Assembly: GCA_951406725.2 (NCBI GenBank)
Contig: OX597826.1
Coordinates: forward strand, 1,550,001-1,614,000
Reading direction: 5' to 3'
Length of the DNA: 64,000 bases
From: Octopus vulgaris
Lineage: Eukaryota
A model generated the notes under the pieces. It was given only the letters and a program-made list of their open reading frames with translations, made no database searches and was not told the DNA's origin. The position numbers were made by a program, and so were the translations under genes. This document shows, piece after piece, positions 2,690 through 52,925 of the stretch. Positions within the stretch are counted from its first letter, which is position 1; the number at the start of each line of letters is the position of its first letter.

Positions 2690-3172
2690 AATTGTAGCTG
2701 TGATACCCATGTCGGTGGAACATAAAAAGCACCATCCAAATGTGGCCGATGCCAGTGCTGCCTTGACTGGCTTCCGTGCCGGTGGCATGTAAAAAGCACC
2801 AACCGATCGTGGCCGTTGCCAGCCTTCTCTGGCCCCTGTGCCGCTGGCACATAAAAAGCACCCACTACACTTATGCAGTGGTTGGTGTTAGGAAGGACAT
2901 CGAGCTGTAGAAACACTGGCTCCCGTGATGGTGGTACGTAAAAAGCACCAACCAAACGTGGCCGTTTCCCACCTGACTGGCTCCTGTGCCGGTGGCACAT
3001 AAAAAGCACCCCCTACACCCTCGGAATGGTTGGCATCAGGAAGGGCATCCAGCTGTAGAAACATTGCCAGATCAGACTGGAGCCTGGTGCAGCTTCCTGG
3101 CTTCCCAGACCCTGGTCAAACCGTCCAAACCATGCCAGCATGGAAAATGGATGTTAAATTATGATGATGATG
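2690..3172 (+). mobile_element. RTE-related 3' UTR / SINE-like repeat with internal tandem units
   Basis: Repeated GTGCCGGTGGCAYRTAAAAAGCACC units, then TGGTTGGCRTYAGGAAGGGCATCCAGCTGTAGAAAC and a (GAT)n tail. The same tail is joined to RTE coding sequence at 4962-5760. Confidence 0.75.
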
Positions 3173-3546: not shown

Positions 3547-3563
3547 ATATATATATATACCAT

Positions 3564-3980
3564 AGGCGCAGGCGTGGCTCTGTGGTAAGTAGCTTGCTTA
3601 CAAACCACATCGTTCAAGGTTCAGTCTCACTGCATGACACCTTGAGCAAGTGTCTTCTGCTATAGTCTCGGGCCAACCAAAGTCTTGTGAGTGGATTTGG
3701 TAAACAGAAACTGTTTTTATATATATATATATGTGTGTGTGTGTATGTGGGTATACGTAAATTTGTGTGTGTTTCTGTGTTTGTCCCCACCACCATCGCT
3801 TGACAACCAATGTTGGTGTGTTTACATCCCTGTAACTTAGCAGTTTTGCAAAAAGAGACCGATAGAATAAGTACTTGGCTTGCAAAGAATAAGTCCTGCG
3901 GGGTTGATTTGTTCAACTAGAGACAGTGCTCCAGCATGGCTGCAGTTAAATGACTGAAACAAATAAAAGAATAAAAGAAT
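3564..3980 (+). mobile_element. Octopus tRNA-derived SINE, family A, full length
   Basis: Head GGCGCAGGCGTGGCT...TGGTAAG and GGTTCAGTC, core CACCTTGRGCAAGTGTCTTCT...GTGAGTGGATTTGGTARA, internal (TA)n(TG)n, AAAAGAAT tail. More than 25 full or partial copies in the window. Confidence 0.9.
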
Positions 3981-4961: not shown

Positions 4962-5760
4962 ATCATTTAACGTCTGTTTTTCCATGCTGGCATGGGTTGG
5001 ACAGTCAGACAGGAGATGATCAGCTGAAGAGCTGCTGCCTGGGCTTCATTTGTCTGTCTTGGCATGGTTTCTACAGCTGGATGTCCTTCCCAATGCTATC
5101 CACTTTACAAAGTGTAGTGGGTGCTTCTATGCAGCACTGGCACAGGGCCCTTTTTATGTGGTACTAGCATCGTTGAGCCTGCAAGATTGGGGAATATTCA
5201 GCTGGAGAGGGATGCAGGGGAGAGGGATGCAGGGGAGAGGGATGCAGGGGAGAGGGATGCAGGGGAGAGGGATGCAGGGGAGAGGGATGCAGGGGAGAGG
5301 GATGCAGGGGAGAGGGATGCAGGGGAGAGGGATGCAAGGGAGAGGGATGCAGGGGAGAGGGATGCAGGGGAGAGGGATGCAGGGGAGAGGGATGCAGGGG
5401 AGAGGGATGCAGGGGAGAGGGATGCAGGGGGGAGGGATGCAGGGGGGAGGGATGCAGGGGAGAGGGATGCAGGGGAGAGGGATGCAGGGGAGAGGGATGC
5501 AGGAGAGAGGGATGCAGGGGAGAGGGATGCAGGGGAGAGGCCTTTTATGCAAAGACAACCACATATTTACTTAACTTGATGTGTCTTCTGCAGCACCCCA
5601 CAAACTGCCAGGAGTCTTGGTCCCTTGTCATTCCCTCTGTGAGGTCCAACATCTGTAGATCCTTTCTCACCACTTCGTCTCACATCTTCCTGGGTCTACC
5701 CCTTCCACATGTTCCCTCCACAATCAGTGATTGGCACCTCTTGATGTAGCTGTCTTCATT
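4962..5760 (-). mobile_element. RTE-clade LINE 3' end (pseudogenised RT C-terminus plus 3' UTR)
   Basis: Minus strand translates NEDSYIKRCQSLIVEGTCGRGRPRKM*DEVVRKDLQMLDLTEGMTRDQDSW, which fits the RTE C-terminal 'G.R.RGRPR..W.D.V..D' motif. Confidence 0.85.
5204..5540. repeat. 15-bp minisatellite (GGAGAGGGATGCAGG)n, about 22 copies
   Basis: Direct reading; few substitutions between units. Confidence 0.97.
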
Positions 5761-11096: not shown

Positions 11097-11575
11097 TTGT
11101 TGTTAACACGTTTTGGCTGATATACCCTCCAACCTTCTTCAGGTGCCTTGGGGGAAATTTCAAACCTGGGTTCTCTTTCCTAAGGTATATTTTTCAATGT
11201 TATTATTATTATTAATATTATTGTTCAGGTCACTGCTTGGAATCAAACTCAGAATCTTGGGTTTAGTATCCTTCGCTCTTAACCACCATGCCATAACGCC
11301 TTATGCCCATTACGCCATATGCCCATGGGTATATGGTGTAATGGCATAGTGGTTAAGAGTGCAGGCTACTAATCCCAAGATTCTGAGTTTGATTCCAAGC
11401 AGTGACCTGAACAATAATATTAATAATAATAATAACATCGAAAAATATACCATAGGAATGAGAACCCAGGTTTGAAATTTTCCCAAGACACCTGATGAAG
11501 GCTGGAGAGTATATCAGCTGAAACATGTTAACAACAAACAAGATGAGGACAAATATCTGTTGAATGTAAATAATG
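11097..11575. mobile_element. Fold-back palindrome: two head-to-head units of tRNA-like head + (AAT)n + Penelope-type hammerhead tail
   Basis: Arms 11097-11325 and 11326-11537 are reverse complements around the spacerless centre GCCCA|TGGGT. The tRNA-like head is at 11335-11407; CTGATGA-A-GGCTG...CAGCT-GAAAC is at ~11492-11524. Confidence 0.85.
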
Positions 11576-14512: not shown

Positions 14513-15288
14513 AAATAGATAAATAACCTGAAGGCTATTGTAACAGAAGCAATGTAACCCAGAACAGACAGACATCATCATCATCATTTAACGTATATGT
14601 TCCATGCTGGCATGGAACAGCACAACATCTGGTTTCAAATGAAATAAGGATCTTGTATATGCTGTATAGGGAGTTGGAAATCTTCAATGAAAAGAGACAA
14701 TTTTCATGCAATTTACAAGATTCTTTTTGATTCCCCTAAAAACTGTCTTTGGCATGGATTTATCAGGTTTCATTTGCAAAGGATCAAATAAATAAATTTT
14801 CAGAAAAAAACATTCCCCTTCTTTCCTTTGCCCCCACCTACAAAAAAAGGGGGCAATTTTTCCACTGACATATTGTATATATTGCAAACTTGTAATGAGT
14901 TGTGGTTGTTTATTTTCTTTTGTTTTGTTTTTTTATAGAAAAATGTTAGCTTTTAGTATCAAGATTTATTCTAAATATTCCTGTTTTTTTTTTTCTTTTT
15001 GATAAAGGAATTTTATAAACATTTGAATCAAAATAAAATGAAAGTGAAAAAAAGTTGAAATTCAGATTGTTTTGATTTTTATCTTTTTTTTTATAAATTT
15101 TAATCTTATTTCAGTGAATTATTATTGTTGGTTTGTTTAATTCTGTTTTTCAACTTTGTGTCTTTCAGTAACCAAGAGTTACAACTAGTACTGTTGACAG
15201 TGTTTGGGACCTCTTAACAAAACCTCTGTAACTCTGACCCACTTACTGGAATCTTAGTTAATTTTGGATAAAATTATGTACATTAAAA

Positions 15289-15450
15289 TTTACATTATTT
15301 ACATTTGATGGATATTTGTCCTCATCTTGTTCGTTGATAACACAACCTTTTTGGCTGATATAAGAAAGCTGGAGGGTATATCAACCGAAACATTGTATTA
15401 ACAACAAACAAGATGAGGACAAATATCCGTCGAATGTAAATAATGTAAAT
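15289..15450. mobile_element. Short fold-back palindrome of the same hammerhead tail family as 11097-11575
   Basis: TTTACATTATTTACATT...TTGGCTGATATA is mirrored by TATATCAACCGAAACATTGTATT...AATGTAAATAATGTAAA. The junction falls inside the ribozyme, so the CTGA box is lost. Confidence 0.85.
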
Positions 15451-16473
15451 AACTACTGAATTATTCCTCCAATTGTGTTCACTTGTTGTGGAACTTTATA
15501 GCCCAGGTCCAACCTCAATATTATGCGTGAGACAGAATAAAATCTACTGTAAAATGTTTGCTTGATATGTTGTTATATCACTCATACGCAACGTCACATG
15601 ACATACCCACCTAAATAACAGCACAACTGAAGGAAGTGCCTCATTATGGCACAATTCAAAGGCTGAAACTAATGAAAGAAATAAAAACTGGAATGGAACT
15701 CTTCCCTTATCTGTGGTTGCTCTCTTTGAATGACACTAAAATGTTGCCAAACTTTAAAAATAAAATAATTTACAGAAAATCCATAATAAACAGTCACATA
15801 CTTTAAATAAAAGTAAACGAAATAACAAATGAAGTAAAAGTTAGATTTAATTGCTGCCAAATGGTTGCAGTTATTTGCGTTTAGGTTTGGGCTACAATAA
15901 AATAAAATGCAATGCTAAAGGTAATAATAACAACGATGATGACTTTGATGATAATAATAATGAATGTTAAATAATGATGATGGTTATATACTGATGATGG
16001 TTATATACACCCAAAAATGCTTTCGATTCTTTTTTTTTTCCTGTTTATGTATGATTTCGTATATTGGCAGAAATCTACCATTTTTGACAGAGAACGGTGC
16101 AGTCGATTGCATCAAATCAAGCAAATGACAAGAAATCCATATTTCCTTTTCATCAGGGAAGAATAAACAGATAAAAGAGACAGCCCCATCACTACCATCT
16201 GTATGTCATGCTAGGGAGTGGGGGAATCTTCCATAGTCCTGGGCAGACCAAAGCCCTGTGAGTGAACTTGATAGATGGGAACTGAAAGAAGCTTATCATA
16301 AAAGTACCTGTGTGGTATCATGTAAAATCACCCAGCACACACTCTTGGAATGGTTGGCATTAGGAAGGGCATCCAGCCACAGAAACCATGCAAAATCAGA
16401 CTGGAGTCTGGTGCGGCTCCTCAACTCTTGTTAAACCATCCAACCCATTCCAGAACAGACAATAGTTGTTAGA

Positions 16474-30607: not shown

Positions 30608-30642
<35 letters not shown>

Positions 30643-30986
30643 CATAGCTGTAGGGATGACTGTGTAGTAAGAAGCTTACTTTCCAACCACATGGTTCCGG
30701 GTTCAGTCCCACTGCATGGTACCATGGGCAAGTGTCTTCTACTATAGCCTTGAGCCAACCAAAACCTTGTGAGTGGATTTGGTAGATGGAAATTGAAAGA
30801 AGCCCATTGTATATATACATAATAGGCACAGCAGTGGTTGTGGGGTAAGAAGCTTGCTTCCCAACCACATGGTTCTGGGTTCAGTCCCACTGCATGGCAC
30901 CTTGGGCAAGTGTCTTCTACTAGAGCCTCAGGCTGACCAAAGCCTTGAGAGTGGATTTGGTAGACAGAAACAGAAAGAAGCCCATC

Positions 30987-31011
<25 letters not shown>

Positions 31012-43629: not shown

Positions 43630-43672
<43 letters not shown>

Positions 43673-44351
43673 CAGGCACGGATGTATGGTAAGAAGCTTT
43701 TTTCCCAACCACATGGTTCAGGTTTCAGTCCCACTGCGTGGCACCTTGGGCAAGTGTCTTCTACTATAGCCTCAGACTGACCAAAGCCTTGTGAGTGGAT
43801 TTGGTAGATGGAAACTGAATGAAGTCCATTGTGTGTGTGTATACATATGGATGTGCTAGATTTACGAAGAATAAGTCTTGGGGTCGATTTGACTACAACC
43901 CTTTAAGGCAATGCTCCAGCATGGCCACAGTCAAATGACTGAAACAAGTAAAAGAATAAACGAATATATCATCATCATCATTCCAATGTTCACTTTGCTA
44001 TTCTTGCAGGGGATTTCACTGAGCCAGATTTTCTACAGCCAAAGACACCGTTCGTGTCACCAACTCTCATCAGCTTCCAAGCACATCAGTAATTTGCCCA
44101 TGGTCAGACATGTTATTTGCAGGGTACTAGAAGTGAATAACACTGCTTGTATGACAGTCATAGTTTAGAATTGTTTTGGAATGTCATATCAAGGAGATAC
44201 AACCACACACTTGATTATTTCAACCCCTGTACTTGACTGATACTTCTGTTTTGTAGATCCTGGAAGAATGAAAGACAAAATTGTCTTTTTTTTAGGAATT
44301 GAGCTCAAGGACAAAGCAAAGTATTTCTTTCTGACAAACAGCTTTCCTTAA

Positions 44352-50130: not shown

Positions 50131-50331
50131 AAAGTGTATATATAAAGTGCATTTAATAATCACCGTATTCCAATTTCCTTCACTTTTCAATGATTAGCAG
50201 ATGAGCGACTGTCTTTTGGTACAGACACAACACAGGCTATGCCTTCGGGTCTTTTGGATAAGGTTTCCAGAAATAACTCAATAAGTTTACCATTAACACC
50301 GTGAAATATTCATGGGTCCCACTAATTATTA

Positions 50332-50707
50332 AGGTGCAGGAGTGGCTGTGTGGTAAGTAGCTTGCTTACCAACCACATGGTTCTGGGTTCAGCCCCACAG
50401 CATGGCACCTTGGGCAAGTGTCTTCTACTATAGCCTTGGGCCGACCAAAGCTTTATAAGTGGATTTGGTAGATGGAAACTGAAAGAAGCCTGTCGTATAT
50501 ATGTATGTGTGTGTGTGTTTGTCCCCCAACATTGCTTGACAACTGATGCTGGTGTGTTTACGTCCCTGTAACTTAGTGGTTCAGCAAAAGAGACTGATAG
50601 AATAAGTACTAGGCTTACAAAGAATAAGTCCTGGGGTCGATTTCTTCGACTAAAGGCAGTGCTCCAGCATGGCCACAGTCAAATGACTGAAAAAAGTAAA
50701 AGAGTAA
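50332..50707 (+). mobile_element. SINE family A, full length
   Basis: Near-consensus copy. Confidence 0.9.
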
Positions 50708-52414: not shown

Positions 52415-52554
52415 GGATGTTTAATATTTTAATGTTTGTTTTTCTGTGTTTGCAGAGGTCAGACAAAAGTTTGTTGGGGAAGACTTTTCTATGGCCAGAT
52501 GTCCTTCCTGATGACCACCTCGACCAGTTTCCATGTGAAGTAATAATCTCCAGT

Positions 52555-52925
52555 TGTGTGGTAAGTAGCTTGCTTACCAACCACATGGTTCTGGGTTCAT
52601 TCCCACTGCGCAGCACCTTGGGCAAGTGTCTTCTACTATAGCCTCAGGCCAACCAAAGCCTTGTGAGCAAATTTGGTAGATGGAAACTGAAAGAAGCCCA
52701 TCGTATATATGTATATATATATGTTTGTGTGTGTGTGTTTATCCCCCCAACATTGCTTGACAACCAATGCTGGTGTGTTTACGTCCATGTAACTTAGTGG
52801 TTCGGCAAAAGAGACTGATAGAATAAGTACTAGGCTTCCAAAGAATAAGTCCTGGGGTCGATTTGCTCAACTAAAGGTGGTGCCCCAGCATGGCCGCAGT
52901 CCAATGACTGAAACGAGTAAAAGAG
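52555..52925 (+). mobile_element. SINE family A
   Basis: Near-consensus copy. Confidence 0.9.

Follow-up and report, generated by a model that had tools for sequence, protein, structure and literature searches.

Two head-to-head pLTRs of a Penelope/Poseidon-type retroelement, each with a tRNA-Arg-like head, form an inverted pair in Octopus vulgaris DNA

We analysed a window of 64,000 nucleotides of Octopus vulgaris DNA (contig OX597826.1, positions 1,550,001 to 1,614,000), in which two arms at 11097-11309 (minus strand) and 11326-11545 (plus strand) form an inverted pair with 90% identity across 213 nt (E 9e-80). An earlier note on this DNA had described a spacerless palindrome centred at 11325/11326, and the centre was indeed found there; the palindrome is imperfect, however, with a 16-nt tandem duplication in the left arm, within 11291-11326, a repetition in both arms of the 8 nt preceding box A, and a left arm that ends about 40 nt sooner than the right one. 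Read outwards, each arm has boxes A and B, followed by an AAT tract and, some 50 nt further on, by a hammerhead core and an A-rich end. The parts that had been named earlier, a tRNA-like head followed by (AAT)n and a hammerhead, were all present in both arms, whereas the 50 nt that separate the AAT tract from the hammerhead had been left out of that description and contain the start codon of a reading frame (11458). Three nucleotides are absent after GAAAC or AAAAC in both arms, and the hammerhead core of the left arm has changed from GAAA to AAAA. The same AAT tract, a 2-nt insertion, the triplet deletion and the 8-nt duplication are private to the two arms of the window, and the flanks of the pair are not duplicated. 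ARAGORN found no tRNA in either arm, and Rfam gave no tRNA or hammerhead match in them, only spurious microRNA hairpins. The inverted pair is real, yet not an independent SINE, and we consider it almost certain that each arm is the pLTR of a Penelope/Poseidon-type retroelement (Table 1).

The 3 nt missing from both arms are retained in the head-less copies near 15.3 kb (15288-15464), as had been said before, and this triplet proved to be the hammerhead cleavage site itself. Elsewhere, the window contains one or more further SINE families that are abundant and tRNA-headed, with a different head (3550-3744, 30632-31004, 43654-43848, 50318-50512, 52526-52720 and others, D10-D20), a 15-bp minisatellite of 22.5 copies with 98% identity (5204-5540) and a 148-bp tandem pair (2766-3063).

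Table 1. Features of the inverted pair and of the second insertion of the family in the window.
Feature	Position	Strand	Remarks
Right arm: Penelope-like copy truncated at its 5' end to the pLTR (head, AAT tract, hammerhead-bearing ORF start, short tail)	11326..11575	+	Profile columns 541-826
Left arm: inverted partner, same pLTR, tail ends earlier	11097..11325	-	Profile columns 542-787
Junction: remnant of the native GCCC-AC-GGGC hairpin, loop decayed to AT	11291..11341		16-nt and 8-nt duplications
Right tRNA-Arg-like head	11342..11409	+	Box A 11342-11352, box B 11385-11396; cloverleaf stems lost
Left tRNA-Arg-like head	11226..11293	-	Box A 11283-11293, box B 11239-11250
(AAT)n tract, right arm	11410..11437	+	Predicted 5' UTR
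(AAT)n tract, left arm	11198-11225	-	Equal in length and pattern to that of the right arm
Penelope ORF codons 1-39	11458..11574	+	ATG 11458; one stop, codon 6; homologous to the N-terminus of an 847-aa relative
Minimal type I hammerhead within the ORF start, right arm	11487..11529	+	Cleavage triplet deleted, predicted inactive; min-HHR definition of PMC4209133
Minimal hammerhead, left arm	11105..11147	-	Triplet deleted, GAAA to AAAA
3' end of right arm	11530..11575	+	Falls in the short (proximal) class of Penelope tail ends
Second insertion of the family, lacking the head, with its truncation within the hammerhead	15363..15464	+	Triplet kept
Inverted partner of the 15.4-kb copy	15288..15362	-	

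Searching the genome with two 21-nt motifs gave 10,234 and 1,660 exact matches, compared to 1 and 0 for the reversed controls, which shows that the family is spread genome-wide and not a matter of chance. The right arm used as query likewise yielded thousands of candidates, and among 30 loci obtained in this way, two of which were the window itself, six had the end of a common reading frame upstream of the head. When 30 loci were collected using endonuclease DNA only, a query having neither head nor hammerhead and with one locus being its own, the head was found directly downstream in 23, at a spacing of 21-22 nt in 22 of these 23; head and hammerhead were both present at 21 of the 30 loci, the hammerhead only at three more, and neither at four. 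At one locus (L111) the frame was open over 569 codons with an RVT_1 match (E 2.7e-6) and a stop just before the head, a second (L114) gave RVT_1 at E 2.4e-10, and RVT_1 was found in 4 of the 5 frames examined. The L111 frame had 2,989 relatives among 7,999 scored candidates, carrying PF00078 and in some cases PF01541 (GIY-YIG), and both its PADKGNA (the DKG motif) and its VDD motif align with those relatives. Pfam gave no direct GIY-YIG match on the decayed copies of the family; their C-terminus aligns end to end with a relative (P0070), residues 505-562 of which match PF01541 above cut-off. In the alignment the endonuclease is C-terminal, unlike the N-terminal endonuclease of Naiad, and the RT-EN linker is without the cysteine cluster or zinc finger of Neptune and Nematis.

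The order of the element is head, (AAT)n, ATG, hammerhead, tail, RT, GIY-YIG, stop, 21 nt and again head. Compared with the published definition of Penelope-like elements with its pLTR tandem, inverted partner and tail, and with the features given there for Penelope/Poseidon (PMC8557442), the octopus family has the RT with DKG, the C-terminal GIY-YIG with CCHH residues, the partial-tandem pLTR, the inverted 5'-truncated partner and a 30-40-nt tail that together mark the EN+ class. By every structural feature examined the element is of Penelope/Poseidon type. The suggestion that the tail was Penelope-type was borne out, and a Penelope-like element with that same tail exists. Its head and tail also co-occur genome-wide and not merely at this locus, an AAT tract following 218 of 233 complete heads. 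No named Penelope-clade reference was present among the 120 matches, IMG/VR contained no relative, solved structures gave only weak RT matches, and no intact full-length ORF of the headed family was found, the longest open frames being 569-573 codons. The family may already exist in Repbase, Dfam or SINEBase under a SINE or Penelope label, and it may likewise be identical with one of the octopus SINE families OK, OR1 and OR2, which are of tRNA-Arg origin.

Two further observations were made during these searches. On one small contig (C31; L088, L091, L094, L096-L098, L102, L105, L108), the family is present in many copies that share their stops and their inverted layout, suggestive of an amplified segment. 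The genome also holds a second, very young Penelope-like family of near-identical copies (e.g. L444-L450, with about 100 places listed) and open frames of about 500-1,200 codons, having a cysteine-rich, Neptune-like RT-EN linker, a T-rich 3' UTR, no tRNA head and, as judged by eye, a hammerhead variant beginning with TTGAAGA.

That the hammerhead lies within the coding frame of the element became clear from the 5' part of the ORF. Among 30 loci found using an N-terminal ORF query, the tail adjoins the ORF in 16, with the hammerhead in line in 12 and the head in five. In each of the nine copies having both anchors, out of 11 tried, the distance from the hammerhead to the conserved N-terminal domain was a multiple of three, and the peptide of the hammerhead region aligns with the N-terminus of an 847-aa relative (P0004) at 42% identity and E 8e-59. 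At P0004 residues 18-60, a 55%-identical relative has retained the hammerhead-encoded peptide at its N-terminus, which suggests that ribozyme and coding constraints overlap over long distances. In most copies of the family, stem I, of 5 bp, leads into CUGAUGA plus a single additional base, after which come stem II, GAAA-CG-U-U and the other side of stem I; this matches the minimal PLE hammerhead (PMC4209133). Using a min-HHR descriptor of our own, run without a shuffle control, we found 20 hammerhead motifs of the same layout and with varied stems among 79 related loci, 14 of them with U at the cleavage position.

The 3 bases missing in the window comprise the cleavage triplet and at the same time one codon, so that the reading frame is kept while both hammerheads of the window are predicted to be dead. 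This triplet-deleted variant accounts for about 14% of the motif matches (the 1,660 exact ones) and occurs in short copies and also in ORF-linked ones (three of 24 classified), a spread that is consistent with cleavage being dispensable, or with spread in trans. The variant is also unevenly placed, with 38 of the first 100 listed matches (0-135 Mb) lying in the 8.5 Mb of C1:107.0-115.6 Mb, and may have hopped locally from a source copy. Self-cleavage is predicted to be possible only as a dimer or with the help of protein. When head and hammerhead were folded as a single strand, the result did not exceed that of shuffles (z -0.97 to +0.88), which is what a minimal hammerhead and a head reduced to its boxes would be expected to give.

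The head itself is most similar to tRNA-Arg. Comparing 90 heads with 30 tRNA genes of the genome, limited to six isotypes, we obtained scores of 55 for tRNA-Arg(TCG) and tRNA-Arg(TCT), 35-49 for the other isotypes and 27 for shuffles, and the head profile matches an Arg(TCG) gene of the genome at E 2e-5. Boxes A and B have been kept in the heads and the cloverleaf stems have not; a tRNA gene was ruled out, as the stems are unpaired. The earlier notion of a tRNA-like, Pol III-driven head agreed with these results in that both boxes were found in each arm. The pLTR head is matched equally well by a SINE head from this genome (17 bits compared to 16), and the donor of the head may therefore have been a SINE. 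SINEs with a pLTR-like head (14-17 bits) lie at L027, L125 and L425 and are candidate donors; the segment following their head is one that we take to be CORE-like. No such head was found in 79 related loci from other animals (best E 0.22) or in seven copies of the second, young Penelope-like family (best E 0.64), and relaxed ARAGORN calls in the related loci were scattered, with no fixed position. As a separate observation, L166 has seven tRNA-Cys-like genes clustered within 3 kb.

We then considered where copies of the family begin. The motif at the centre of the window palindrome is native to the element, GCCC-AC-GGGC preceding the head in ORF-linked copies (268 exact sites), and the exact fold-back version of the junction was found at 227 sites in the genome and, for each of three public runs, in 333-404 raw reads. 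Among 45 fold-back junctions examined, the loop was AC in 32, AT in 12 and GC in one, with AT explained by CpG decay. It had been asked earlier whether the centre is fixed; the native hairpin with its AC loop is but one of several junction types. Using a query for hammerhead and tail only, drawn with the triplet-deleted variant of the window, we obtained 29 non-self loci, in which 16 primary copies reach the start of the head and, read by hand, 13 of these 16 stop there. Copies most often have their 5' boundary 13-15 nt upstream of box A, and the same holds for 10 rows having no fold-back. Truncations beyond this hotspot are spread over more than 500 nt (40 copies). The pile-up of 5' ends suggests an RNA start at the hotspot, to which the hairpin itself could contribute. 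At the other end, two classes of 3' end about 30 nt apart were seen, with 85 short and 73 long out of 186.

The triplet deletion served as a marker for how dimers arise. Among 14 full head-to-head dimers, the triplet was deleted in both arms in three, including the window, intact in both in six and discordant in five, which indicates that most informative dimers used two templates and rules out pure intramolecular fold-back as a general dimer mechanism. The arms of a dimer were also no closer to each other (divergence 0.081) than arms of different dimers (0.091). It had been proposed that both arms derive from one template; for this locus a single source is plausible, whereas the proposal does not hold as a rule. 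The features private to the two window arms are equally compatible with one template and with two RNAs of one source. Many fold-back arms were only 20-30 nt long and then joined to an inverted tail at an overlap of GTTAA or similar, as seen at several loci. The head-to-head layout follows from the integration mode of the Penelope-like class, and nothing suggests that the divergent promoters which this layout would create, and which the earlier note had mentioned, are of importance.

A mechanism can be proposed from these features and from the Poseidon protein of the green anole, for which a hammerhead spanning the ORF start, two internal RT start sites that define the tail, nicking and extension of both strands, a predicted dimer, and insertion in vitro without hammerhead cleavage are described (PMC11167929; PMC8557442 likewise describes an internal start of reverse transcription, the tail, a hammerhead that overlaps the ORF, and partners in inverted orientation). 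The RNA of the octopus element would begin at the head, 13-15 nt upstream of box A, and reverse transcription would, by analogy with the anole protein, start internally at two sites in the 5' part of the ORF. A head-initiated RNA would thus give a cDNA of about 270 nt that runs off the 5' end of the RNA, similar to a strong-stop DNA, the end of which may fold back on the self-complementary 10-mer. An overlap or microhomology would then link the folded cDNA to a second one, which would have been primed by the other target strand after nicking and often made from another RNA. Longer copies would derive from RNA that is either tandem or read-through. Insertion is predicted not to need hammerhead cleavage. 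The short central duplications have the look of re-priming that occurred repeatedly.

In our interpretation, which we would give a probability of about 0.7, the palindrome is a Penelope/Poseidon-type insertion of two head-to-head pLTR copies, in which the tRNA-like head likely serves as a Pol III-type promoter. The identity of the arms as Penelope pLTRs is hardly in doubt, and the tRNA-Arg-like head would probably be an internal promoter of Pol III type and determine the 5' end of the RNA. Transcription by Pol III is suggested by sequence. No run of TTTT was found in the 2,237 ORF columns of a column yardstick made from 160 alignments, nor in a 1,049-column profile that includes the pLTR. Copies of the family had 0.33 TTTT per kb; in the same genome the value was 3.3 for a LINE family taken as control and 2.1 for the second family of Penelope-like elements. 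Furthermore, 40 of 41 related ORFs of at least 450 codons contained TTTT (414 observed against 377 expected). A headless relative (L309) had no TTTT in 473 codons and an ordinary T-rich 3' UTR. The deficit, in a test that concerns one ancestral sequence, gave P=0.016 against a base shuffle and P=0.10 against a synonymous-codon shuffle, and GGGG runs were low as well. Three RNA runs mapped on L272 showed thousands of reads over the tail, equal on both strands and with no start or end peak, these being unstranded fragmented libraries of a species that is possibly not that of the window. A bolder proposal, which we put forward tentatively and think possible but doubtful, is that Pol III transcribes the whole 2.6-kb RT frame after capture of a tRNA-derived promoter with TTTT terminators having been purged, and that strong-stop cDNAs insert in a SINE-like manner, such that element and SINE are one unit.

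The most serious alternative is that this same Penelope-like element carries the tRNA-like piece as a passenger, an old SINE head fixed in its 3' UTR, with transcription by Pol II from an internal promoter that is LINE-like, as it is in Drosophila Penelope, and with the hotspot being due to cDNA fold-back at the hairpin. An uncapped Pol III RNA of 2.6 kb would be an odd messenger, which speaks for this explanation, as do the similarity of the pLTR head to a SINE head of the same genome, the P=0.10 obtained with codon shuffles, the TATA-less internal promoter located in the pLTR of Penelope (PMC2377424) and the Pol II assumed for autonomous partners in PMC10886601. Nonetheless, both boxes are intact although the cloverleaf has been lost, copies without fold-back, too, have their 5' ends 13-15 nt upstream of box A, having passed the hairpin instead of stopping ahead of it, the hairpin of 5 bp is weak, and control families of the same genome have retained their TTTT runs. 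We find a passenger head improbable, though worth weighing.

Much less probable is the model first proposed for this locus, in which an independent lineage of tRNA-headed SINEs, its hammerhead tail taken from Penelope, inserts in the form of an inverted dimer. Many copies do consist solely of head, AAT tract, hammerhead and tail, beginning at the head, a SINE-like mode of transcription and mobilisation would be expected of such short copies, and the triplet-deleted variant has reached 1,660 motif matches. Against this, the head is fixed in the autonomous, ORF-bearing element (23 of 30 loci), the hammerhead is part of its coding frame, the deleted variant occurs also in ORF-linked copies, and in many insertions the inverted partner is incomplete or, the insertion being a monomer, missing. 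Furthermore, none of 235 columns separates 45 fold-back copies from 39 ORF-linked ones except for the hairpin loop, an orientation effect, and both groups sit 7-8% from the column majority; lacking any diagnostic difference, the short copies must be taken to derive from the same source pool as the ORF-linked copies, and a separate SINE is not upheld. The short copies behave SINE-like but fail this separate-lineage test. That the window dimer would be a palindromic duplication at the DNA level or an artefact of assembly, to which the private features shared by its arms could point, is scarcely credible considering the 10% difference between the arms, not expected of an assembly error, the same junction at 227 sites and in raw reads of three runs, and the unduplicated flanks.

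The inverted dimer as such is ordinary for Penelope-like elements, of which an inverted partner with 5' truncation and a pair of 3' end points are textbook features; the tRNA-Arg-like A and B boxes in the pLTR are what is unusual. Like the Poseidon elements of the green anole (PMC11167929), the octopus family has one ORF with RT and C-terminal GIY-YIG, partial-tandem pLTRs, inverted 5'-truncated partners, a tail of about 30 nt and a minimal hammerhead overlapping the ORF start, but it differs from Penelope/Poseidon in its tRNA-like A and B boxes, in the sharp 5' hotspot at a palindromic 10-mer and in an ORF without TTTT. A literature search made mostly at the level of listings, and including the portions consulted of PMC13282606 and PMC3531059, gave no Penelope-like element with a tRNA-derived pLTR. 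The nearest parallel is found in the TRIMp3 elements Helenus, Ajax and Cassandra, LTR elements that are non-autonomous and whose repeats contain a tRNA or 5S promoter (PMC10886601), where a Pol III promoter that stems from a gene for a small RNA sits in the terminal repeat with its boxes kept and its fold lost, possibly born by insertion of a SINE into the repeat. Those elements are shorter than 1.3 kb and have a PBS, a PPT and target duplications, whereas the octopus repeat flanks an RT-endonuclease ORF, overlaps its start and belongs to a protein-coding element.

With tRNA-derived SINEs the family shares the tRNA-like head, copies of about 270 nt that start at the head, and a high copy number; unlike SINEs it gave no separate non-autonomous lineage, its 3' part is the ORF start of its partner and not a LINE 3' end, and it has no simple-repeat 3' tail. 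OR1 and OR2 are described as CORE-SINEs (PMC4758252, PMC4824008), whereas the octopus pLTR head is followed by the AAT tract only. The non-LTR retrozymes and Sm-alpha-like repeats (PMC7229834; bioRxiv 10.64898/2026.07.22.740005) are similar in being short repeats with a type I hammerhead and kinship to PLE pLTRs, and the consulted portions of these two sources mention no tRNA head. Retrozymes are head-to-tail tandems with two hammerheads flanking the unit, and such a tandem was ruled out for the octopus copies, which are dispersed monomers or, mostly, inverted pairs, with 14% of motif matches being without the triplet.

If the tRNA boxes indeed lie at the start of the RNA of an element having a TTTT-free ORF, this would challenge the assumption that protein-coding partners need Pol II (PMC10886601), and it would provide one route by which a SINE-like repeat can arise from an autonomous element. 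Repeat annotation would likely mislabel the copies of this family as SINEs. With thousands of natural junctions, a sharp 5' mark and a subfamily marker, questions on Penelope integration become directly countable in this genome, including the origin of inverted partners, the use of two RNAs and the need for cleavage by the hammerhead.
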